A DNA stretch of 64,000 nucleotides from Promethearchaeota archaeon (GTDB lineage Archaea; Asgardarchaeota; Lokiarchaeia; Sigyniarchaeales; SOKP01): contig JAEOSU010000038.1 in assembly GCA_016840165.1 (NCBI GenBank), positions 1 to 64,000 of the forward strand. Reading direction: 5' to 3'. The notes beneath the pieces are model-generated. The model made no database searches. It saw only the letters and a list, made by a program, of their open reading frames with translations, and was not told the DNA's origin. Shown here in pieces: positions 3,386 through 13,869 of this stretch (position 1 is the stretch's first letter; every line of letters begins with the position of its first letter). A program made the position numbers and the translations under genes.

Positions 3386-4129
3386 TTATTCTTTTATATG
3401 TCCTAATACCCCAACATAAATAGAGGTTTCATTGATTCCATCAATCTCCAACAGTTGGTTTAACTCATCATCATATATCGCACCGATGGTACAAGCTCCA
3501 AGGTTTAATGCTTCCGCTACTAAATAAAAATTTTGCCCTATGTGTCCTGCATCTAAATATATGTATCTATAGCATCGCTGGGAATATTTCCATTGCGATC
3601 TGTCAATTACTGCTGTCAAGATAAAATTGACACTAGATTTATATGCCATCTCTTGATCCAAGCATCCTTTTGCTACTTCCATTCGAAAATCACCTTTATT
3701 TAGTAATTCAAGATTATGGCTGGCGATATCATAATGATAAACGCCTTGGGATAAATTCGAAACATTATTGATTATTGGATATGTCTCTATTGGATAGAGG
3801 CCTCCCGCAGAAGGGGTAGTTCGAAATGCAAAATTAGGAAACTTACGCGTCAATCCTGTCATTCCATATAACAATAAACTTAATTCCATAATTGATATCG
3901 GAGATGAATTAAAATTACGAGATGATTTCCTATTGGTAATCGCTTTCCAGAATTGAATGCTATCATCAAATTTAGGTTTCGGAAGCTCGACTACATCCAT
4001 TGCATCGGGGTAATTCTTATAAGTTGGAGGTTTATTATCCCAATCCAAATAATGACGTGGTAATTGCCCTCTAATATATTTCGATTTTTTTTGAAACTCA
4101 TCTCCATATGGATCCATACTATCTCCCAT
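3386..4129 (-). CDS. SagB/ThcOx-family FMN-dependent dehydrogenase (nitroreductase fold)
   Basis: Motifs RKSSRNF, RTTPSAGGLYPIETY, YRYIYLDAGHIGQN, LGACTIGA. Confidence 0.9.
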   Translation of the reverse strand: MGDSMDPYGDEFQKKSKYIRGQLPRHYLDWDNKPPTYKNYPDAMDVVELPKPKFDDSIQFWKAITNRKSSRNFNSSPISIMELSLLLYGMTGLTRKFPNFAFRTTPSAGGLYPIETYPIINNVSNLSQGVYHYDIASHNLELLNKGDFRMEVAKGCLDQEMAYKSSVNFILTAVIDRSQWKYSQRCYRYIYLDAGHIGQNFYLVAEALNLGACTIGAIYDDELNQLLEIDGINETSIYVGVLGHIKE

Positions 4130-4217
4130 AACTAAAATGAGTTTAATTAATTTTAAAATATTGAGCTAATAAATTAAAAATAAAGTAATTAAGAATTAAA
4201 AAAAAATAATTGACACA

Positions 4218-4457
4218 TTATTTTACTGCTTCAAAATAGATGTGCCATTGTTCTTCGTCTTCGATAAAATCGGTCCCTAAATGCTTATGTTTCGTTTGTT
4301 TTAATAAATCTCTTGGAACAGACTCACTAGCTGGTTTGTAATCGGTTATGACCTTCAACACAGTACCTGGTCGCATTTTCATAAGCTGTTTTTTTGTTTT
4401 GAGGGCTGGTACAGGGCAAACTAATCCACAAACATTTAATTCCATATCAAAATTCAT
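4218..4457 (-). CDS. tusA: TusA/SirA-family sulfur carrier (second copy)
   Basis: GLVCPVP (CPxP) motif; ATG at 4457 preferred because it follows a GAGAGG SD. Confidence 0.85.
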   Translation of the reverse strand: MNFDMELNVCGLVCPVPALKTKKQLMKMRPGTVLKVITDYKPASESVPRDLLKQTKHKHLGTDFIEDEEQWHIYFEAVK

Positions 4458-4491
4458 ATTTTTTCCTCTCATTTAATTTTTTTAATAAAAT

Positions 4492-6960
4492 TTAAGATTC
4501 ACACAATAGTGTGAAAATGGGTTCATCTCTTCCTTGATCAACTTTCATTTCAAGTTTCATCATCTGTGTTAATCGAAGAGCTTCATATCGTACTTTTTTC
4601 GAGTCTAAGTTCAAGTTTTTTGCAATTTCGCTGATGGTCCCTATTCCTTGAGTAGTGATGTAGTCAAATACTTGTTGTCTGGGTGTTTTTTCAAAAGTCA
4701 TTAATTCTCGTTTTGATTTGAGATTTATCGCTTTGTTTAGCTCCTCTTCGTTTACTTCTCCTTTTTCAAATAAACCCGATTCAATTGCACTCTCTACTAT
4801 TTCCTTACCCCTTTCAGTCCACACCACAACAGTTGTATAACCTTTTTGGGAACCAACCTCTCCTGCGGTTAAATCTGAATAGATTGCAGGAAAGTCTTGA
4901 CAGTGACTACAAAAATGATTACAACTTAAGCATCTACGGGCTTCTTGTAAAGCCATATCCTCATTAAACATTTGATCTATTTCTTCAAAGCTCCAGTTGA
5001 TCTCTTGCGTTGCCTCCTCTAAAGATTCAGGTTTTAATGAATAATCTTTTGGGGGTTTCTTAGGACCAGTAAAGAAAGAATTTACTTTCTTATATCGTCC
5101 TTCTGTTAAACTTTCTCCTTTTAGATATTTATCAATTGAAATAGCAGCTTCTTTTCCGTGAGCAATCGCTGCTATAGCAACCGCTTTTGAATTGTTAATG
5201 ATATCACCACCGGCAAATACTCCAGAAATATTTGTCTCAAAAGTAACTTCATTGACTTTAATTTTATTTCGTTCTTTTTCAAGTTTATTTTCTGTTGCAG
5301 CGTCAATTTGATCAAAATCCACTGCCTGGCCTACTGCAATAACAATTGAGTCTACTGGAATCTTATAATCCGAACCGTCCACTTTATTAAGAGCCTTTCT
5401 GCCATTTTCATCAGGAGCTCCCCATTCAATCTGATAGCAATTTAAAACTAATTTACTATCTTCACTTTGTGTGATTTTAGAGGTCGAAGTTTTAAAGTGA
5501 TATTTCATAAAGTTCATCTCGTTATCGGGGATATCCTTCAATACTAATTCTAATTGTTCTTCAGACATGATATCCACTAAATGCACTTTCTCAGCACCCA
5601 AACGTAAAGCGGTTTGGGCTACATCAACGGCTACTGGACCACCACCAATGATTCCTAATGTTTTTCCCTTGAATTCTTCATTATTTTCCCAATAACGATA
5701 TTTCCTATCCATCAGAAAACTAATCGCAACATGAACATTTGGGAGATCATCACCTTCTAAATGAAGAGTTCGAGGCTTATATTGCCCAGTAGCAATAAAA
5801 AACGCTTCAAACCCATCATTTTTCAAATCCTCGATGGTCATCTCAGGACCTAATGAGCTATTCAGAACTACTTTAACTCCCGATTCAACTATCCTTTCAA
5901 CATCATAGTCTAAAACGTAATTTGGTAAACGAAATTGTGGTACTCCGAATCGAAGCATCCCTCCAGTTTTATCAGTTTTTTCAAATATTGTGGGAGCGTA
6001 TCCTATTTGCCTTAAATAATATGCTGCGGTCAATCCCGCGGGTCCAGAACCAATAATAGCAATCTTTTTAGCATTTTTGTCTATTTTTGGTTTCTTTCTT
6101 GCTTTTGTGGAATTTTCGATTTCCCATTCAGTTACGAATTTTTTTAATTCTCTAATCGCGACAGGATGATCATCTCCTATTAATGTACATCCATGCTCGC
6201 ATTCATTTGTACAAATTCTTCCACAAATTGAAGGTAATGGATTATTTTGACGGATTAAATCTACCGCTTCTTGATACTTTCCTTGTCGAATCAATGAAAT
6301 ATAACCTTGAGCATTTACCCCAGAAGGACACCCATTGCAGCATGGAGAACAGACGATCCCCTTATCAGTAAGTTCAGTTCGCATATGAGAGTTGCAGAAA
6401 AGTCCGAATTTAAATATTTCACGGTTCATTTCTTCTTCTAATTCCGCAGCACCTCGAATCTCACAAGGAACTCCTACAATACCTACTGGTTCTGAGGTTT
6501 CTCCTACAAGTTTCACCAATTTTTCAAGTACTCCAGAACGCCCATAAACCACGCCTGCTTTTTCAACGACTTCTTTTGGATCCGATACTATATCTGCTTC
6601 TGGTTTTTCTTCTATCTCTTGTACCATCACAATCTCAGCTAACTCCTTATTATCTAGCAAGGATTTTGCTAAGGTAGTAACTACTCCACCACTAGCTGCT
6701 TTTGCTAAAATTTCAGGATTTTTACTTCTAAGTGAGTATATAGCTTTTGGCTTCTGTTTTTCAAACTTTTTCTGAATAACTTGGGGACAATTCTGATAAC
6801 ATTTCCCACAGTCTTGTCCTTCACGTTCTAAAATACAATAATCTTTAAGAACAGGGCGTCTAACTTCCATTTCAATATGCTTACACGACCCCACACAGAG
6901 ACCGCATCCCTGGCATAAACCAGCGTCTATTATTTCACTTTTTAATAGTTCAAAACTCAT
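4492..6960 (-). CDS. FrhB/FdhB-family subunit with an inserted GltD/NfnB-like FeS-flavoprotein and a C-terminal winged-helix-like domain
   Basis: N-terminal CxxCxxCxxxC; ASGGVVT, GVPC, GLFC (FrhB); then PCxxxCP..NPLPSICGRIC, GSGPAG, GGMLRFGVP, GGGxVAxD, FAGGD, EARRCLSC (GltD-like); then CSHCxD..DLTAG..G..TTVVVWTERG (FrhB C-terminus). Confidence 0.85.
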   Translation of the reverse strand: MSFELLKSEIIDAGLCQGCGLCVGSCKHIEMEVRRPVLKDYCILEREGQDCGKCYQNCPQVIQKKFEKQKPKAIYSLRSKNPEILAKAASGGVVTTLAKSLLDNKELAEIVMVQEIEEKPEADIVSDPKEVVEKAGVVYGRSGVLEKLVKLVGETSEPVGIVGVPCEIRGAAELEEEMNREIFKFGLFCNSHMRTELTDKGIVCSPCCNGCPSGVNAQGYISLIRQGKYQEAVDLIRQNNPLPSICGRICTNECEHGCTLIGDDHPVAIRELKKFVTEWEIENSTKARKKPKIDKNAKKIAIIGSGPAGLTAAYYLRQIGYAPTIFEKTDKTGGMLRFGVPQFRLPNYVLDYDVERIVESGVKVVLNSSLGPEMTIEDLKNDGFEAFFIATGQYKPRTLHLEGDDLPNVHVAISFLMDRKYRYWENNEEFKGKTLGIIGGGPVAVDVAQTALRLGAEKVHLVDIMSEEQLELVLKDIPDNEMNFMKYHFKTSTSKITQSEDSKLVLNCYQIEWGAPDENGRKALNKVDGSDYKIPVDSIVIAVGQAVDFDQIDAATENKLEKERNKIKVNEVTFETNISGVFAGGDIINNSKAVAIAAIAHGKEAAISIDKYLKGESLTEGRYKKVNSFFTGPKKPPKDYSLKPESLEEATQEINWSFEEIDQMFNEDMALQEARRCLSCNHFCSHCQDFPAIYSDLTAGEVGSQKGYTTVVVWTERGKEIVESAIESGLFEKGEVNEEELNKAINLKSKRELMTFEKTPRQQVFDYITTQGIGTISEIAKNLNLDSKKVRYEALRLTQMMKLEMKVDQGRDEPIFTLLCES

Positions 6961-6962
6961 TT

Positions 6963-8198
6963 TTATCCCTCTTTGATTGTAATTTCTTTAATTACTCCTT
7001 TTGGATCAATACTATAGTTTAAAGACCCATTTTTATAGGTCCCTTCTGCTACTTCAAAAATATGACTTTTGTAGCTTTCAAAATCCTCATTATCATCAAT
7101 TTTCTGTTTAAATCCACCAAAATACACATTAGACAGATTCATGTTTCCAGCAATCTTTCGGATTTTTTCAGTTGTTTCTTTATATTTTTGAGCATCTTTA
7201 TTATTCGTAGCTTCAATTAATTCTGTTTCTAATTCTAATAATTCGCTACGATACTTTTTCGTTTGTTCACTGATTTCTATATTATTCGCTTTTTCATAAG
7301 TTTCAATAATTTTAAGTATTAATGAAATTGATTTATTTCCACCTAATAATCCCGCAATAAGGGGTAATTCTTCGATTAATCTTCCAGTAAAAACATCTTG
7401 AAGTAAATCACCAGAAGATTGCATTCTTCCCCTTGGTAAACCTGAAGTTGGTAAGGTAAATCGAAAGAAATTTCCAAGAATGTCTGGTAAACTATCCGTT
7501 ACATCATCTTCAGCATCCGCAAGTTTGTCAGTAGCTCCTTTTTCAGAATGCTCGGTAGCCATTTCAATATTTCCCATAAGTGTGCCAAACATTCCCAACA
7601 TACGGACTCCAGATCTTTCTACCATAGGTTTGCACCCTCTACACGGAGTATTATAATCGATACACCTTTCTTTGCATTCTTTTGCAATAAATCCATTACA
7701 AAGAAATCCTAAATCATTAAAGCAAGTTTCATTATCTTCAATCTCAATTTGTCTATTTACAGAGTCAAGATATTCACAGGTTGCTCTCCGCTTACATGCA
7801 TTACAAAGTGGTCTGTTCTCTCGCGATTCTTCACCGTTTATTGCTGCAATTAGTTCCTCTATTTCCCCTAAACAACCATCTACAGTAATCTCATTAGAAA
7901 CGAAGTTTTTTAACGGAGTGACTTGATGACCTTTTTGATTTGCTAATGCAAAGATTCCTCCTGTTGTAGTGCAATCCCCAAATGCAATAATTCTTTCAGC
8001 ATTGTTTTGGATATTTTGAACGGAATCTAAATCATTCGGTAATAAATATCCAGTAATTATTGCAACATCCATAGATTCTGCTTTCCACTCGTGAGGATTG
8101 GAAATGAATTCTACCTTAATATTATCCTCTAGCTTTAATAATAAAGTTTCATAGAAACATTTATTACAACCATTAAATTGAAATATTTTAACATCCAT
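6963..8198 (-). CDS. MvhG/FrhG-like hydrogenase small-subunit FeS protein with a ~150-aa C-terminal extension resembling a degenerate large subunit
   Basis: GCNKC, GDCTTTGG, DGC, CNAC, CFxxxGxxCxG..C..C..PCRGC. Confidence 0.8.
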   Translation of the reverse strand: MDVKIFQFNGCNKCFYETLLLKLEDNIKVEFISNPHEWKAESMDVAIITGYLLPNDLDSVQNIQNNAERIIAFGDCTTTGGIFALANQKGHQVTPLKNFVSNEITVDGCLGEIEELIAAINGEESRENRPLCNACKRRATCEYLDSVNRQIEIEDNETCFNDLGFLCNGFIAKECKERCIDYNTPCRGCKPMVERSGVRMLGMFGTLMGNIEMATEHSEKGATDKLADAEDDVTDSLPDILGNFFRFTLPTSGLPRGRMQSSGDLLQDVFTGRLIEELPLIAGLLGGNKSISLILKIIETYEKANNIEISEQTKKYRSELLELETELIEATNNKDAQKYKETTEKIRKIAGNMNLSNVYFGGFKQKIDDNEDFESYKSHIFEVAEGTYKNGSLNYSIDPKGVIKEITIKEG

Positions 8199-8640
8199 AC
8201 TTTATCGTCCCCTCTTCTTTAATTGCTGTGGCTAATCGTTCCACAATATCTTCAAAGTCCCCTACCGCAGTTTCTCCTTCCGCAGCTCTTGAAGTGTACT
8301 GGTTTATGAACTGGTCACTATATCCTAGTTCTTTAAATAACTTTTTCATGAGTTTTATTCTATGCATTGATAATAAGTTTCCATTGAAAAAATGACATGC
8401 CCCTATACAACATCCAACGCATGCAACAGCATCAGCACCGTTATTTAAGGCATCCATAATTTGGATAGGTCCAATTTGACCAGTACATTGAACTCGAACA
8501 ATTCGTATTGCAGGTTCATAAGCCATTCTTGCTACGCCCGCAGTATTTGCTGAGCCTTGACCACATTCATTGCACATAAAAACAACTATGTTTTGAATTT
8601 TCCCTTTTATTTCTTCGTCTATAACTGCACAATCACTCAT
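8188..8640 (-). CDS. mvhD: MvhD/FlpD [2Fe-2S] subunit
   Basis: FMCxxC, RIVRVQCTGQ, GADAV, GCxxGxCHFxxGN; ATG at 8640 overlaps the hdrA stop (ATGA). Confidence 0.9.
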   Translation of the reverse strand: MSDCAVIDEEIKGKIQNIVVFMCNECGQGSANTAGVARMAYEPAIRIVRVQCTGQIGPIQIMDALNNGADAVACVGCCIGACHFFNGNLLSMHRIKLMKKLFKELGYSDQFINQYTSRAAEGETAVGDFEDIVERLATAIKEEGTIKYGC

Positions 8641-10667
8641 TCGCAAACGGCACCTCCGCCAGATACGGCGATTATTTCATCTAACAATTGATCATCGCTA
8701 AAATTGATTAATTGAATCGCTTTTGTTGGACATACGGGCATGCACATTCCACACGATTTACACGCAACTTCATTTACGGATGGTGTCCCATTTTCATCAA
8801 TATCAATCGCAGCTGGAGCACAAACCGTTTTACAAAGTCCACAATTCACACATAAATCATAGTCAATTGTAGGAATAAGCATTTCTTTCTCAATATATCC
8901 TTTTACTAATGGAGCAGCGGCTAAGGCGGCAGCACTTCCTGCGTGGGCAACACTCTCAGAGATATCTTTTGGACCTTGAATTGTACCAGCTAAAAAAATA
9001 CCTCCCTTACTACTTAAAGTAGGATTCATTTTTATATGGAATTCTTTTAGGAAACCTTCCTTTGATCGTAATACATGAAGTTTAGAACCAAGTGGTCCAA
9101 TTCCTTCAGGAGGAACCATAGCAGCTGACAAAACAACTAAATCTGCTTTTAATTGTAATGGAGTCTGACTTAACGTATCTTCGACTATCACTCTCAATTC
9201 ACCAGTTAATGGGTTTCTTACTATTTCTGAAGGTCTACCCCGAATAAACCTAACTCCTATTTCTTGAGCAGATTTGTAAAGCTCTTCAAAATTAAGTCCA
9301 GGTGTTCTTACATCAATATAACAGATGGTAACATCAGTATCCGGATACATTTCTTTAATAATTCTCGCATTCTTTACAGCAAACTTACAACAGACGCCAG
9401 TGCAGTACACATTCCCTACCTGATCATTTCTACTGCCGACACATTGTATCATAACGACACTTTTTGGAATTTTACCATCCGATGGTCTCAAAACTTCGCT
9501 ATTTGTTAATGAAGTTGGTGATAACATTCGTTCTAGTTTAAGCTGCGTAATTACATCTTCAAATCCTTCTTGTCCATAATGATATGGCTCGATTTCTGAA
9601 GGATCATATTCATCATATCCCGCGGCGACAACAATCGATCCAACCTTAATGGTTTTTGTTTCTGGTTGCATTGAAAAATCTACTGCTTGAACAGGACAAA
9701 TATTTACACATGTATTACAATCAATACAATTCTTTTTGTCTCGTATATATGTAGCAGGAATCGCTTGTGGATATGCTTTATATATAGCTTTTCTCATAGA
9801 CATTCCCATATCCCATTCACTTGGGAGTTCAACTGGACAATGCTCAGCACATTCACCACAAGAAGTACAGTTATCTTTTACATAGCGTGGCTTAATTTCA
9901 AACTCGACTTCAAAATTACCTAAAGAACCTTCAATATTTTTAACTTGTGAATTAGTATATAGCTCTATTAGCGGATGATTGGCAACACCGTTAGTTAACG
10001 GCGAGATTGAGCACTGAGGACATTCAAGAGTAGGAAATGTTTTATTAAGTCTTGTCATATGTCCACCTATGGTTGATTCTTTCTCGATAAGATAAACTGG
10101 GATCCCTAATTCTGCCATATCGTGGGCAGCTCTAAGACCAGCAATCCCTGCACCTATTACCAATGCAGCTTTAGTTGTCTTTACTCTTCTGGTCTCTACA
10201 TCCTCTAATTTACGGGCTCTATTTACTCCCGCTTCTACTAACTGCATGGCTTTTTGATCTGCTTTCTCCTTTTCTTTTTGATGTACCCAACTACAATATT
10301 CACGTACATTTACTTGCTGATGTCGATGTTTATTAAGTCCCATTTCTTCAATTGCCCGCGCAAAAGTTTTTCCATGTTGATTTTTAGAGCAACTGGCAAC
10401 TACAGTCCGGTTGACACCTAATTCTTTAATTGAATCCTTTACCATTTGCACCCCAGGTTTGGAACACATAAACATGTAATGTTCAGCCTTTACAACATTA
10501 GGTAAGGTTTTTGCATAATCCGCAACTTTTGCGACATCAACCGTACTAGCAATGTTATGGCCACAATGGCACACGAATACTCCGATTCTTGTTTCTTCTG
10601 AATCATTTTCCTTAACTGTATCATCTACATTTTCTGCTTTTTCAACTTTTTCTTCTTTTATTGTCAA
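8637..10667 (-). CDS. hdrA: Heterodisulfide reductase subunit A
   Basis: IGVFVCHCGHNI, MCS, VIGAGIAG, KTFPTLECPQC, inserted 2x[4Fe-4S], IQCVGSR, CxxxCC, GPKDI, C-terminal ferredoxin. Confidence 0.95.
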   Translation of the reverse strand: MTIKEEKVEKAENVDDTVKENDSEETRIGVFVCHCGHNIASTVDVAKVADYAKTLPNVVKAEHYMFMCSKPGVQMVKDSIKELGVNRTVVASCSKNQHGKTFARAIEEMGLNKHRHQQVNVREYCSWVHQKEKEKADQKAMQLVEAGVNRARKLEDVETRRVKTTKAALVIGAGIAGLRAAHDMAELGIPVYLIEKESTIGGHMTRLNKTFPTLECPQCSISPLTNGVANHPLIELYTNSQVKNIEGSLGNFEVEFEIKPRYVKDNCTSCGECAEHCPVELPSEWDMGMSMRKAIYKAYPQAIPATYIRDKKNCIDCNTCVNICPVQAVDFSMQPETKTIKVGSIVVAAGYDEYDPSEIEPYHYGQEGFEDVITQLKLERMLSPTSLTNSEVLRPSDGKIPKSVVMIQCVGSRNDQVGNVYCTGVCCKFAVKNARIIKEMYPDTDVTICYIDVRTPGLNFEELYKSAQEIGVRFIRGRPSEIVRNPLTGELRVIVEDTLSQTPLQLKADLVVLSAAMVPPEGIGPLGSKLHVLRSKEGFLKEFHIKMNPTLSSKGGIFLAGTIQGPKDISESVAHAGSAAALAAAPLVKGYIEKEMLIPTIDYDLCVNCGLCKTVCAPAAIDIDENGTPSVNEVACKSCGMCMPVCPTKAIQLINFSDDQLLDEIIAVSGGGAVCE

Positions 10668-10668
10668 T

Positions 10669-11586
10669 TTAGACGACCTCTTGTTCTTTTTTCATTTGCT
10701 TTTCTCCAAAAATATAATTTTTACCCATTAATTGATATTGAAGCCCAACAAATTCTTGATCCATTCCCATACAATAAGCTGTCAACTGAGATATATGAAT
10801 TACCGGATAATCATAATCGCAGCTCTTATTCTTATTTAAGTAGTCCTGTCCTGTCTCAAATTGCAAATGACAAAATGGACATATATCTAATATAAAATCA
10901 GGTTTCACAGTATCGATATTTCTCATTTTCTCTCCAAATATCGTCATACTCGCATCACCTGAATAAGCTTTTACACCACCACCCGCACCACAACATGTTA
11001 GTTGTTCTTTAAAGCGTACCGATTCGACACCTAAAGCTTCAATATACTCTTCGATAATGGTAGGCCCTTCAGAACTTTCAATTTCTCGGATTCGGGTTGG
11101 TTTTAAAAAATGACAGCCATAATGAACTGCAGCACGAGCGTTTACTTTTCTTACGATCATATCTTCAATACCCCAAGGACCTATATCATAGCCTAAAACT
11201 TCACCAATATGACGAACATTAATTGTACCCTTAAACTCATAATCCCCAATTAACTTCAATTTTTCATTAACCATGATTCGATGATCTTCATTTTCTTTCA
11301 GATGTTTGTTGACTTCTTGAAGGGTTCCAAAACAGCCATTACAAACTGTTAGAATATCACAATCCAATTGTTCCGCGATACATAGATTTCTTGCAGCAGC
11401 AACCATCCAATCTATTTTATTAAATGAGCGAAATACACCAGGAGCGGGACAGCAGCCTGCTTTTTCCATATCTAGCAATTCATATCCTAATTTTTCCATA
11501 ACAAATTTCGTAGCTTTTTCTATAGCAGGATATCTATTTGGCATTAAGCATCCAAGAAAAAATGCAAATGATTTCTCTTTTACCAT
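10669..11586 (-). CDS. hdrB: Heterodisulfide reductase subunit B
   Basis: Two CCG domains: FLGC..RYP / CCPAPG / CNGC and HYGCH / CCGAGGG / CPFC. Confidence 0.95.
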   Translation of the reverse strand: MVKEKSFAFFLGCLMPNRYPAIEKATKFVMEKLGYELLDMEKAGCCPAPGVFRSFNKIDWMVAAARNLCIAEQLDCDILTVCNGCFGTLQEVNKHLKENEDHRIMVNEKLKLIGDYEFKGTINVRHIGEVLGYDIGPWGIEDMIVRKVNARAAVHYGCHFLKPTRIREIESSEGPTIIEEYIEALGVESVRFKEQLTCCGAGGGVKAYSGDASMTIFGEKMRNIDTVKPDFILDICPFCHLQFETGQDYLNKNKSCDYDYPVIHISQLTAYCMGMDQEFVGLQYQLMGKNYIFGEKQMKKEQEVV

Positions 11587-11598
11587 TCTTTTCTCCTC

Positions 11599-12147
11599 CT
11601 ATTCTTCTTTTTCTTCCTCTTTCACGGGAGGAAGATCAAACATATATTTTTCAAAATTTTTTAAATCTTTATCATCCCCCTCTTGCTTAAACTTAAACAA
11701 TGTGGGAGGTAATTCTTCTAAACCTAATTCTACTCTTCTTTGTTTAACTTCATCATTAATCGGAACTGCATGCCCCGTATTTTTTAAATAACCAACAACC
11801 GCCCTATGATTTGGAGAAATATTGCCTCGTTTCGTGGCATAATTCCTTAATTCCATAATAACATCAGTTGGCCTCACATCTCTTGGACATCGTTCATAAC
11901 ATTGATAGCAAGTAGTACATAGCCAGATATCAGGATCATCTAAAACTGAAAGATCCCCTAATACTACTTTGCGTACTATATTGCGAGTTTTTAAAGCAGT
12001 CCATCGACCACTTTCACAACTAGCAGTACATGTTCCACATTGAATACATTTCCAGATGTTAGACTTTCTCTCAATATTTTTGAAGAATTCTTGATCAAAA
12101 TCCTCATCTGTCATGAATTCTTTATGTTCTTCCTTTACATCAGACAT
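11599..12147 (-). CDS. hdrC: Heterodisulfide reductase subunit C
   Basis: CIQCGTCTASC, IWLCTTCYQCYERCPR, TGHAVP. Confidence 0.95.
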   Translation of the reverse strand: MSDVKEEHKEFMTDEDFDQEFFKNIERKSNIWKCIQCGTCTASCESGRWTALKTRNIVRKVVLGDLSVLDDPDIWLCTTCYQCYERCPRDVRPTDVIMELRNYATKRGNISPNHRAVVGYLKNTGHAVPINDEVKQRRVELGLEELPPTLFKFKQEGDDKDLKNFEKYMFDLPPVKEEEKEE

Positions 12148-12186
12148 AATTTCTCACCAATTTACTATAAAAATAAAAAAAAATAT

Positions 12187-12603
12187 TTATAATGATACTA
12201 CTTGACCGCCATCAGACATTTCAATAAAACCTGCGGCGCCTATGGGATCTTCGACAAAGTCCCACATTTCTTCTCTCTTGATGTTCATTAAATCCATAGT
12301 CATTTGACATGGGTAAAGTTTCATCTTACCATCATCGACTGCTTCTTTAATGAGGTCCCAAGGTTCTTCCATTCCAAACTTCTTTAAACGCTTTCTAAAC
12401 ATCCCAGCTGCCATACCTTTCATTGGAGCAGGCATTCCTGCCACTTTTGGCTTAAATTTCTTTTTTAAGAGATTTAATCCCCAGAATGTAAAAAAGAAGT
12501 TCATCTCAACGTCCATCGCGCCTCCTGTTGTGCCAAGTATTGTCATCATCATAAATTTTTCGAAAGATTTGTCTTTCACAATAAAATTCATTTTTTCAAC
12601 CAT
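12187..12603 (-). CDS. DsrE-like (DrsE_2 / peroxiredoxin-family) sulfur transferase
   Basis: FFTFWGLNLL, YPCQMTMDLM, GAAGF; ATG at 12603 lies 5 nt after GGTGA. Confidence 0.85.
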   Translation of the reverse strand: MVEKMNFIVKDKSFEKFMMMTILGTTGGAMDVEMNFFFTFWGLNLLKKKFKPKVAGMPAPMKGMAAGMFRKRLKKFGMEEPWDLIKEAVDDGKMKLYPCQMTMDLMNIKREEMWDFVEDPIGAAGFIEMSDGGQVVSL

Positions 12604-12657
12604 ATATTTCACCTTATTTTCTTTTTTTGTTTTTTTTAATATATATTTTATAATTTT

Positions 12658-12677
12658 GGCTAATCGATTAATTAGCC
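12658..12677. promoter_or_regulatory. Inverted repeat GGCTAAT-N6-ATTAGCC, containing the palindrome TAATCGATTA, in the dsrH/dsrE2 spacer
   Basis: Read directly; GC-containing dyad in an otherwise AT-rich ~150-bp gap; function inferred. Confidence 0.35.
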
Positions 12678-12752
12678 GGCTTTATATTCAAATTATTACT
12701 TACTCGTAAAAAATATCTTATTTTTTTCTTAATTCTATTTATTTAGTCATCT

Positions 12753-13082
12753 CTATATCCAAGAAACGACTTTTTGTGTCGATTCTAAAACATCTACAAG
12801 TTCATTATAATCAATTGCATTTATTTTATCATGCAATTGATTAAGGGCTATACCTCGGGCGTTCATATCAGGTTTCAGAGCATAAACTGTAATATTTAAA
12901 TCTAAAAGCTCAATCATAGATTTCGGTATCTTGCCTTTTTTAGAGATACCTATTACTCCATCATGGATTAAAACAAATCCGATTCGATGATTTTTATTAA
13001 TCTGAGCTTTTAGAATTGGTAATAATCGCTCTAAGTGGCTTCCCGTCATTTCACTAAATCCAAACAAATATATTAAATCCAT
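12753..13082 (-). CDS. dsrH: DsrH/TusB-family sulfur relay subunit
   Basis: LIHDGV, VYALKPDMNARG, IDYNELVD, terminal SW. Confidence 0.85.
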   Translation of the reverse strand: MDLIYLFGFSEMTGSHLERLLPILKAQINKNHRIGFVLIHDGVIGISKKGKIPKSMIELLDLNITVYALKPDMNARGIALNQLHDKINAIDYNELVDVLESTQKVVSWI

Positions 13083-13097
13083 TTCGATACTCCTCCT

Positions 13098-13466
13098 TTA
13101 GAACCTAATGCAAATATCTACGTTATCTATTAAATCTACTAAATCATCTACCGAGATGATATTTAGATTCTCATATTCTACCAAATCATCTTTAGAAAGA
13201 CCTGCATCAGCCAATGCGGAATCCAAGATATATAGTTCTAGATCAGATAAGTCTGCCATTTCAAATACCTCCTCTAAATTATCCATGCCAACAACTTCAG
13301 GCGCTGCATCTTTATTTAACAGATACACTGCATCTCCAGTAAAGACTACCTTACATTCTATATATTCACCTAAAGCCACAAACCCAGAACCAATTCTTAT
13401 TGCTTCAACAGCCGAGTTTTTACCCACAGGTGATTTATCAGTAATTATTAATGCGGATTCAACCAT
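13098..13466 (-). CDS. dsrF: DsrF/TusC-family sulfur relay subunit
   Basis: SPVG..AVEAIR, VVFTGDAVYLL; lies between dsrE- and dsrH-like genes. Confidence 0.8.
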   Translation of the reverse strand: MVESALIITDKSPVGKNSAVEAIRIGSGFVALGEYIECKVVFTGDAVYLLNKDAAPEVVGMDNLEEVFEMADLSDLELYILDSALADAGLSKDDLVEYENLNIISVDDLVDLIDNVDICIRF

Positions 13467-13471
13467 GATGA

Positions 13472-13840
13472 CTAACCTCCTGGTCCAAAAACTATGACTT
13501 TTTCAGATTCTACTGACCAATTAGAAAAGTCTCCTAAACCTTCTTCAACTGCACCATCAATGAATTCCTCTTCCTTCAATCCCGTTAAACTCACCCAAGT
13601 ACTACATCCAGCGATCGGAATGGCATTTTGTTTACAAAAATCTTCAATCTTTTTCGGAATGTTTCGAATAGAAGTCCCACAACTGATCTCCTTTTTAAGG
13701 TTATATACTCCTGAACCATAAAAGAACAAACCCTTGATATTATGCCCCTTTTTAATCAATGCTTCAGCGATTTGAATCAAAGAATCTGATGCTTCGAATT
13801 TATAAGGTTCTGTACTTATAAAGAACGTGTATGTCGTCAT
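13472..13840 (-). CDS. dsrE: DsrE/TusD-family sulfur relay subunit
   Basis: PY..A..KGH....FFYxxGV, Cys at the catalytic-equivalent position (AGCSTW), GLGD..KVIVF. Confidence 0.85.
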   Translation of the reverse strand: MTTYTFFISTEPYKFEASDSLIQIAEALIKKGHNIKGLFFYGSGVYNLKKEISCGTSIRNIPKKIEDFCKQNAIPIAGCSTWVSLTGLKEEEFIDGAVEEGLGDFSNWSVESEKVIVFGPGG

Positions 13841-13869
13841 TGTATAATCTGCCTCAATCATTCCCCTAT

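Follow-up and report, generated by a model that had tools for sequence, protein, structure and literature searches.

A FrhB-type protein split by a permuted NfnL flavoprotein, a candidate NADH port for an Hdr complex in an Asgard archaeon

P0001 is an 822-amino-acid protein encoded on the minus strand (4492-6960) of the window studied here, a 64,000-nucleotide stretch that covers positions 1-64,000 of contig JAEOSU010000038.1 from Promethearchaeota archaeon, an Asgard archaeon (GCA_016840165.1). Its open reading frame starts with ATG and contains no internal stops. In this protein a FrhB module is interrupted by an NfnB/GltD-like flavoprotein in permuted order, inserted between two ligands of the FrhB [4Fe-4S] cluster; the ligands are conserved, the FrhB fold is rebuilt in a structural model, the insert carries an NADH-type motif and the gene lies in a conserved operon with hdrABC and mvhD. 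There is good support for P0001 as a pyridine-nucleotide port connected to an Hdr complex, and the protein probably gives an Hdr operon that has no hydrogenase catalytic subunit a direct port for NADH. Our preferred reading, to which we assign a probability of roughly 0.6, is that a cytoplasmic HdrABC-MvhD-MvhG-like complex takes up (or releases) electrons through P0001 as one of its subunits, an NADH port that could run in either direction.

A preliminary description of this DNA, made from the letters alone, had proposed a FrhB split by a GltD/NfnB-type module, and a Pfam scan gives exactly that order: FrhB_FdhB_N (amino acids 75-146, 50.7 bits for a cut-off of 22), Fer4_20 (204-283, 84.4 bits), Pyr_redox_2 (299-602, 97.2 bits) and FrhB_FdhB_C (666-738, 67.1 bits for a cut-off of 23.3). 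In the genome-level scan the FrhB_FdhB_C profile matches in two pieces, its positions 4-49 on amino acids 159-200 and its positions 68-149 on amino acids 655-738. The insert had been placed at about 6348 to 4921, which is amino acids 205-680, and these coordinates are right (all domain boundaries are in Table 1).

The two outer parts of P0001 (amino acids 1-175 and 683-767) match the ferredoxin-plus-F420H2-oxidase part of Fsr (7NP8), 8RJA_E, 8RIU_B and FrhB, which points to a FrhB host of the FpoF/Fsr-N type with an N-terminal 2x[4Fe-4S] domain. E values to FpoF/Fsr-type proteins are 1e-10 to 1e-17 for the N half and 1e-7 to 1e-10 for the C half; the ferredoxin domain aligns in phmmer with residues 3-169 of Fsr (7np8_A) and with 8rja_E, the NCBIfam FpoF match spans amino acids 9-202, and all eight Cys of the domain (C16, C19, C22, C26; C42, C51, C54, C58) are invariant. 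In M. marburgensis, the FrhB cluster is held by C104, C134, C192 and C195 (PMC3591093), and Fsr has the cluster motif PC-X40-C-X54-C-X2-C (PMC10229431). C684 and C687 of P0001 align residue by residue with C192 and C195 (3zfs_C 191-257, phmmer); C166 corresponds to C104 by the range offset of the 3zfs_C match and also aligns with the PC motif of Fsr, and for C189 motif order, together with the FrhB_FdhB_C profile match, points to C134. None of the four Cys varies among 35 full-length and 8 short homologues, which supports the earlier suggestion of a functional domain insertion with FrhB cluster ligands on both of its sides; the second and third lie 494 residues apart in P0001, versus 54-58 in canonical proteins. 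An AlphaFold2 model of P0001 (77-row alignment; predicted local distance difference test, pLDDT, 79.1; predicted template-modelling score, pTM, 0.64) was compared with known structures by VIA-align. FrhB chains superpose across both halves in one rigid-body alignment (model residues 65..760/763; Z 23.0-23.7 with 220-227 residues aligned), for example 9R51_B (Z 23.7, 222/282 residues, root-mean-square deviation (rmsd) 3.3) and 6QGR_B (Z 23.0, 227 residues), so that the halves are predicted to rebuild one FrhB fold from which the insert loops out. Whether they would reassemble was the structural check that had been called for, and in the model they do.

The insert itself is swapped in order relative to T. 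maritima NfnB (4YLF_B): in phmmer, amino acids 205-616 match NfnB 45-462 and amino acids 648-680, the ..FEEI..EARRCLSC helix, match NfnB 10-42. The start of the Fer4_20 profile (positions 4-35) is likewise found at amino acids 657-686, and the permuted order is colinear with 9BOV_A (NfnA), 9N5U_A and 8OH5_C (StnC). The structural alignments of the insert go to the NfnL domain of 9BOV_A (Z 39.3, 447 residues, rmsd 3.1 A), 9N5V_A (Z 38.9), 8OH5_C (Z 38.6) and NfnB 4YLF_B (Z 35.0). With both Pfam domains, an FAD fold (GSGPAG), an NAD(H) fold (GGGPVA...HLVD463) and the FAGGD motif, the insert matches the NfnB/GltD/NfnL family in domains and dinucleotide folds, and sequence and model alike assign it to the circularly permuted NfnL type, of which NfnA and StnC are the solved examples. 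The NCBIfam model for the permuted GltD type (PRK12771) matches amino acids 204-688 only, at 394.6 bits for a cut-off of 516. The pyridine-nucleotide flavoprotein that had been claimed is there and is complete, with Fer4_20 and Pyr_redox_2, both folds and the ligands.

How electrons could leave this module is suggested by NfnA of C. saccharolyticus, whose middle NfnB-like domain holds the chain-end FAD, not the bifurcation site; electrons from NADPH pass from this FAD to the clusters A7, A6 and A3 in turn, and A7 is held by C108, C147, C151 and K170 (PMC11829005). At an offset of +103, the ungapped alignment with NfnA puts the A7 ligands at C211, C250, C254 and K273 of P0001. The fourth ligand of this A7-like cluster is predicted to be K273 or C246, both invariant in the fusion family, and C207, C258, C677 and C680 are left as predicted ligands of an A6-like cluster. 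The seven Cys C207, C211, C250, C254, C258, C677 and C680 are invariant in the fusion family and in 33/33 GltD-like relatives. By analogy with NfnA, we propose that the flavin of the insert is a plain entry port and not a site of bifurcation. Among the operon genes characterised (3386-13861) no NfnA/NfnS partner ([2Fe-2S] + FAD) was seen, a genome-wide search not having been made. The two ends of the module would ligate one and the same cluster and hence be adjacent, and a module whose ends sit side by side on one cluster can be spliced into a loop. The motif C677-x2-C680-x3-C684-x2-C687 would bring the A6-like and FrhB clusters together within a single turn of chain, which, to judge from ferredoxin motifs, implies a short transfer distance.

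The likely substrate of the insert can be read from the segment that follows the second GGGxxA fold. A YRR at this site is of the 2'-phosphate-binding type, and NAD(H) binding is classically marked by an acidic residue where beta-2 ends. YRR is found in 30/33 GltD-like relatives, in 29 of them within the full (I/V)xYRR(S/T)xxEMPA context; P0001 has HLVD463I in its place, as have most members of the fusion family (HLVD-I in 33/35, MVE-I in P0129, YRR in P0130 only). From this motif rule, we infer that the insert is of the NADH type. The Asp of the main clade versus the YRR of the most divergent member further suggests that specificity switched from NADPH to NADH inside the family. This member, P0130 (L010:6111-8576), is full-length and 47% identical to P0001, and its YRR is the retained NADPH-type motif.

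More than 120 clusters at 90% identity (NCBI, JGI, ENA, Logan), with lengths of 817-825 amino acids, share the Pfam set of P0001; all are labelled as Asgard metagenome-assembled genomes, and their names do not go beyond 'FAD-dependent oxidoreductase' or 'GltD-like'. When 1.84 billion 50%-representatives were searched exhaustively, just two more clusters showed the full architecture, P0129 (57% identity) and P0130, all other matches being confined to amino acids ~204-690 at 32-41% identity. Across the 35 full-length members, which reach down to 47% identity, every one of the 20 predicted ligand Cys is invariant; this does not hold for C204 and C208. In a sample of 200 genomes from the phylum, matches to the fusion are confined to one family, where 17 of 40 sampled genomes besides the window's own, from three genera, carry it (fourteen full-length matches, three cut at contig ends or shorter). 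The DNA datasets that contain the gene are marine sediment and soil metagenomes, and no RNA dataset is listed.

In a minus-strand cluster of tightly spaced genes that ends with tusA, P0001 comes last but one; 2 nucleotides separate it from the MvhG-like gene (Table 1). This MvhG-like gene (402-421 amino acids) adjoins the FrhB fusion in every locus read (L010, L011, L012, L014); the 47% relative (L010) has the complete order hdrC-hdrB-hdrA-mvhD-Oxidored_q6-fusion-tusA, and the 57% relative (L011), whose contig begins inside mvhD, has mvhD-Oxidored_q6-fusion-tusA. The MvhG-like protein contains Cys motifs for three clusters, followed by a Cys-free C-terminal extension of ~215 amino acids (Pfam finds nothing credible on the C-terminal 217 amino acids), and would be an Fe-S wire to MvhD. 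No [NiFe] large subunit was found in these loci or, by Pfam scans of the genes characterised at 3386-13861, in the operon of P0001. HdrA (P0004, 676 amino acids) has no Fer4_20 match and a short N-terminal Pyr_redox_2 match (amino acids 169-257), hence no GltD module; in contrast to type III HdrA, where the insert lies within the HdrA ferredoxin domain, the insert is here in a FrhB-like protein. The conserved operon with hdrABC and mvhD bears out the link to Hdr that had been drawn before, and its gene order supports, without proving, a physical P0001-Hdr complex. The DsrE/DsrH/TusA set that flanks HdrABC-MvhD hints that a protein-bound persulfide or disulfide, not CoM-S-S-CoB, could be the Hdr substrate. 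Two other neighbours were recorded: a nitroreductase-family gene (247 amino acids, 3386-4129, minus strand) that follows tusA on the same strand and whose operon membership is uncertain, and, near the fusion operon of the 57% relative, a gene for an Arf/Ras/Roc-family small GTPase (L011:8107-9183, plus strand), consistent with an Asgard origin of that contig.

Table 1. Predicted domains of P0001 and genes of the surrounding cluster, with positions in the window.
Feature	Amino acids	Position (strand)	Basis or remark
N-terminal 2x[4Fe-4S] ferredoxin domain, FpoF/Fsr-N type	1-63	6772..6960 (-)	phmmer to 7np8_A, 8rja_E; NCBIfam FpoF
FrhB N-domain and first part of FrhB C-domain, with C166 (GVPC) and C189 (GLFC)	64-203	6352..6771 (-)	Pfam
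Circularly permuted NfnB/GltD ('NfnL') flavoprotein insert	204-682	4915..6351 (-)	Pfam Fer4_20, Pyr_redox_2; phmmer; VIA-align
Rest of FrhB C-domain: C684, C687 (FCSHCQDF), DLTAGEVGS, TTVVVWTERG	683-754	4699..4914 (-)	phmmer, VIA-align
C-terminal winged helix	755-822 + stop codon	4492..4698 (-)	AlphaFold2 tail model, Foldseek
Four DsrE/DsrH/DsrE_2-family genes		12187-13861 (-)	upstream of hdrC
HdrC		11599..12147 (-)	Pfam Fer4 dicluster families
HdrB (2x CCG)		10669..11586 (-)	Pfam CCG, 119 bits
HdrA		8637..10667 (-)	NCBIfam HdrA2, 747 bits, below curated cut-off
MvhD (FlpD)		8188..8646 (-)	Pfam FlpD, 109.5 bits
MvhG-like [NiFe]-hydrogenase small-subunit homologue	411 in total	6963..8198 (-)	Pfam Oxidored_q6; NCBIfam VhuG, weak
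TusA-like sulfur carrier, directly downstream of P0001		4218..4472 (-)	Pfam TusA, 63.6 bits

The family also includes short forms of 366-399 amino acids (P0133, P0304-P0331; at least ten clusters from NCBI, JGI, ENA and Logan), which are 65-74% identical to amino acids 1-196 of P0001, with P0133 also 65% identical to amino acids 658-822, and which are without the flavoprotein core. The possibility that they are ancestral uninserted proteins was rejected because two remnants of the insert are kept between GLFC and CxxCQDF: the last Fer4_20 helix (..RCGCTLxG..P..I..LK.F..EWE, P0001 254-282) and, in the 399-amino-acid forms, the permuted NfnB N-terminal helix (..F.EIE.....LQ.GK.C.SC, P0001 658-680). 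Four Cys remain (CxC + CxxC). In a quick maximum-likelihood tree of the FrhB parts (IQ-TREE), the eight short forms included make one clade (SH-aLRT 99) nested among long forms, in a tree whose root is insecure, the outgroup P0357 having filled 12% of columns only. The loss of the core in the short forms is secondary. Their locus is rearranged to hdrA-mvhD-Oxidored_q6-short FrhB-(hdrC-hdrB) (L012:2549-3694; L014:2887-4029, G065, from the window's genus), and in G065, the sampled genome with a short form, no full-length form was found.

Another Hdr-associated protein, a fusion of 920 amino acids (L013:483-3245, minus strand, G177:C27), carries the module most closely related to the insert. In this fusion a permuted GltD module lies between an HdrC-like dicluster domain and two HdrB-like CCG domains; it shares 56% identity with the insert over 472 amino acids, as well as the NADH-type LVD motif. 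The module of P0136, a fusion of the same kind (920-937 amino acids, same Asgard family), is 41% identical. The window's own genome seems to have no protein of this type, the best other match being 38% identical (C9:51052-52491). The L013 module is likely a sister or the source of the P0001 insert, and the finding of this relative in an HdrC/HdrB-like fusion of the same family suggests that the module was shuffled between Hdr-associated proteins within the lineage.

We hypothesize that in P0001 the FpoF/Fsr-type FrhB module serves as a scaffold, offering a ferredoxin domain, one [4Fe-4S] cluster and a flavin pocket, with NfnL plugged in between Cys2 and Cys3. If the predicted cofactor sites are all occupied, a hydride from NADH would pass to the FAD of the insert, and single electrons would then move through the A7-like and A6-like [4Fe-4S] clusters to the FrhB cluster that is stitched to the latter by the four-Cys motif; from there they would run through the N-terminal ferredoxin clusters, the MvhG-like subunit and MvhD to the HdrA flavin. 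This flow would drive a coupled reaction in which ferredoxin is reduced along with a disulfide or persulfide at HdrBC, or would itself be produced by that reaction running backwards. Several points weigh against this NADH port: (i), confidence in the AlphaFold2 model is low in the Fe-S loops, and pLDDT is under 50 in the ferredoxin domain as well as where insert and host join (190-203, 645-655, 681-689); (ii), the one basis for a physical association with Hdr is gene order, and the one basis for choosing NADH over NADPH is a motif rule; (iii), the FrhB pocket is strongly conserved within the clade, which suggests that it still does something that a pure NADH-to-Hdr wire does not need; and (iv), the short forms keep FrhB without the NADH core, an argument for the FrhB flavin site being able to act on a substrate by itself.

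These last points lead to the strongest alternative, a subunit with two ports in which the FrhB pocket would bind F420 and the insert NAD(P)H; the protein would then be an F420H2:NAD(P)+ transhydrogenase and/or feed Hdr from either carrier, and three routes would meet at the FrhB [4Fe-4S] cluster. In favour of this reading, each of the two FrhB Pfam domains passes its cut-off and the fold is rebuilt in the model, the pocket motifs are highly conserved in the clade, and the short forms persist without an NADH core in the same kind of operon and so need some substrate site. The pocket itself tells another story. In the cryo-electron microscopy structure of Frh, F420 contacts are assigned to S209/V210 and to the conserved turn 163-IGKGK, part of a three-stranded sheet (148-172) between Cys134 and Cys192 (PMC3591093), and in Fsr as in Frh the cleft for F420 is positively charged (PMC10229431, PMC3591093). 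The insert of P0001 sits exactly at the segment that carries the IGKGK turn. When P0001 (insert removed for the alignment only) was aligned with six FrhB-family proteins of its own genome and P0357, the canonical segment of ~50 residues with D-I-x-K-G-K-F was found in 5/6 of the own-genome proteins and in P0357, the 315-amino-acid par_L007 being without this lid. P0001 retains a T-D-(K/R)-G turn (198-201), aligned with the KGK turn and basic in 31/35 members, which speaks for an F420 site; the ~25 residues that precede the turn and the two strands that follow, elements of the F420 site in Frh, have been replaced by the insert.

Four pocket positions that are invariant or nearly so in the canonical set (FrhB, Fsr, 8RJA_E, 8RIU_B and FrhB-family proteins of the own genome) are different but fixed in the fusion clade: the Asp of DGG is S/N90, K75 of the KY loop is V138 (with R141 invariant), S209 is E701 (E33, D2 among 35) and the Arg of the ..RT.. 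motif is W714 (35/35). P0001 thus lacks most of the beta-sheet lid with IGKGK and has no small residue at the S209 position, and the net change would remove positive charge from the F420-type cleft. The FrhB flavin pocket appears conserved but re-tooled, not decayed, and we consider it a real prospect, though short of an even chance, that it retains F420 reactivity. That some hydride carrier still reacts there is favoured by strong purifying selection on the pocket, by F420 biosynthesis genes (CofH, CofD) in the genome and by the short forms. Loss of the FAD/F420 pocket had been named beforehand as grounds for giving up the idea of one chain with both an F420 and a pyridine-nucleotide site; this loss is partial, the lid being mostly replaced and the pocket residues being changed but conserved in the clade. 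The pyridine-nucleotide half of that idea stands with its complete module and its link to Hdr, but the F420 half is not supported as it was stated.

The genome can be read in both directions. It encodes CofH (466 bits) and CofD (314 bits), both above cut-off, and no F420:NADP oxidoreductase of the Fno family (TIGR01915) above cut-off (best 88.9 bits versus 149.8), two points for the reading with two ports; against it, seven other FrhB loci, of which at least five have canonical pocket motifs, could serve F420. On balance, we hold the reading with two ports to be unlikely, if a serious contender. The sub-threshold Fno hit is a full-length match (npdG) to a protein of 221 amino acids (G000:C48:35970-36557, plus strand), possibly a divergent F420:NADP oxidoreductase. 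Mer (TIGR03555) was not found in this genome, which is 99.7% complete. The seven further FrhB-family loci lie on C29 (44204-47665, 63260-67841), C105, C9 and C54 and are 25-33% identical to P0001, a distance that led us to reject a near-identical uninserted paralogue in the genome; in at least five of them the KGKF lid is canonical and the S209 position holds S/G/A, two adjoin on C29, and the one on C54 (315 amino acids) is without the lid segment.

A stand-alone soluble NADH:ferredoxin (or NADH:acceptor) oxidoreductase, merely co-transcribed with Hdr, would be in keeping with the protein having its own ferredoxin-like domain and a complete NADH port, and GltD/SudA-type modules do act in small complexes elsewhere. 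We regard it as improbable, given the tight spacing of the genes in the window and the fact that mvhD and the MvhG-like gene directly precede it wherever its locus was read, the rearranged short-form loci among them. Even less credible is a redox-sensing transcription factor that would bind DNA through the winged helix and sense the NADH/NAD+ or F420 redox state through flavin and Fe-S clusters. The winged-helix tail of the preliminary description is real at the fold level: folded alone in AlphaFold2, it has a pLDDT of 86.5 and the topology H-H-H-E-E, Foldseek aligns it with the winged helices Zalpha, MarR-type (BpsR) and AspA (TMq 0.68-0.74, rmsd 1.0-2.0 A), and it exposes a conserved basic surface motif, KKVRYEALRL. 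Sequence profiles are weak, no family match of the tail reaching its cut-off (Pfam on the tail alone: DUF7646, E 0.0014; HTH_9, E 0.09). Winged helices often act as protein-protein modules, a sensor of 750 amino acids with five clusters and two flavins would be extravagant, and the place of the gene in the operon fits a structural subunit. Finally, a misassembly, chimera or decaying gene, for which there is no evidence, is ruled out by the breadth of occurrence, the >120 independent clusters sharing length and order, the 17 further genomes of one family, the lack of internal stops and the invariant ligands.

Taking the NADH port together with the re-tooled pocket, we tentatively, and with considerable doubt, envisage that one Asgard family runs an NADH-driven bifurcating Hdr complex without a hydrogenase catalytic subunit, in which persulfide or disulfide carried by TusA/DsrE would be the high-potential substrate and the NADH pool would be linked directly to low-potential ferredoxin. 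The input subunit would be a three-way junction whose pocket (S/N90, R141, E701, W714) has been re-tooled for a second hydride carrier not handled as F420 is in canonical FrhB, and the short forms would be the same machine minus its NADH arm. Central to syntrophy models of eukaryogenesis is the balance that Asgard archaea strike between NADH, ferredoxin, F420 and hydrogen, and no substrate or donor is known for their many Hdr-type complexes. P0001 offers a concrete candidate answer for one of them, with a built-in NADH port and no hydrogenase large subunit in the operon. It is also a natural experiment in the modular evolution of redox enzymes: a permuted module, both ends of which would sit on one Fe-S cluster, has been dropped between the ligands of another cluster, a near copy of it occurs in an HdrC/HdrB fusion of the lineage, and a sister clade has deleted the core and kept four Cys. 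For enzyme engineering, it marks where the FrhB fold tolerates an insertion of 480 amino acids.

Parts of this design are known already: NfnL occurs inside NfnA/StnC, and NfnB/GltD inside HdrA of ANME-1 and 'type III' HdrA (PMC11829005, PMC9012536, PMC12054007). The preliminary description knew this style of insertion from HdrA-like proteins but not from FrhB; inserts in HdrA are indeed published, and no description of a FrhB with a GltD/NfnB insert was found in the literature searched, whose coverage leaves out most subscription journals. What is new is FrhB as the host, the splice site between two ligands of one cluster and at the F420 lid, the Asgard Hdr context without a hydrogenase large subunit in the operon, and the series of secondary deletions.

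Among known systems, FpoF/FqoF, Fsr-N (7NP8), 8RJA_E and 8RIU_B share with P0001 the N-terminal 2x[4Fe-4S] domain, the FrhB fold and the PC..C..CxxC pattern, but their Cys2-Cys3 segment of 54-58 residues, the F420 lid, is replaced by about 480 amino acids in P0001, which also has the four changed pocket residues and an extra winged helix. The closest structures for the insert are NfnA (Csac 9BOV; T. sibiricus 9N5U/9N5V) and StnC (S. ovata 8OH5), whose NfnL domains have the same order (C...CP first, RCxxC last), two [4Fe-4S] clusters, FAD and a dinucleotide fold, at 32-36% identity and Z 38.6-39.3 over about 445 residues; in NfnA, NfnL is also an internal plug-in and a non-bifurcating entry port for NAD(P)H (PMC11829005). 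They differ in the host, a HydA/Fdh-like subunit instead of a FrhB module, in the partner complex, Bfu-type instead of Hdr-type (the operon of P0001 is without NuoE/F-like subunits), and in the NADPH-type YRR, replaced by an NADH-type Asp in P0001. The HdrC-like-GltD-2xCCG fusions have a module of the same permuted type, but it lies between the HdrC-like and CCG domains and there is no FrhB part. The same idea of an NfnB/GltD module of ~500 amino acids nested in an Hdr subunit, with the predicted role of supplying Hdr with NAD(P)H, is seen in ANME-1 HdrA9-11 (PMC9012536) and 'type III HdrA' (PMC12054007); there, in methane-metabolising archaea, the host is an inserted ferredoxin domain of HdrA, whereas here, in an Asgard archaeon, HdrA is ordinary and the host is a FrhB-like subunit. 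Finally, in M. hungatei (7BKB) and in the predicted HdrA-MvhD-FrhB complex of Korarchaeia (PMC10667645), a FrhB-family subunit is likewise encoded with MvhD and HdrA and, as proposed for P0001, is a port for a mid-potential carrier, but this FrhB/FdhB is uninterrupted and without a pyridine-nucleotide module, and it is in the Asgard operon that an MvhG-like subunit is interposed.

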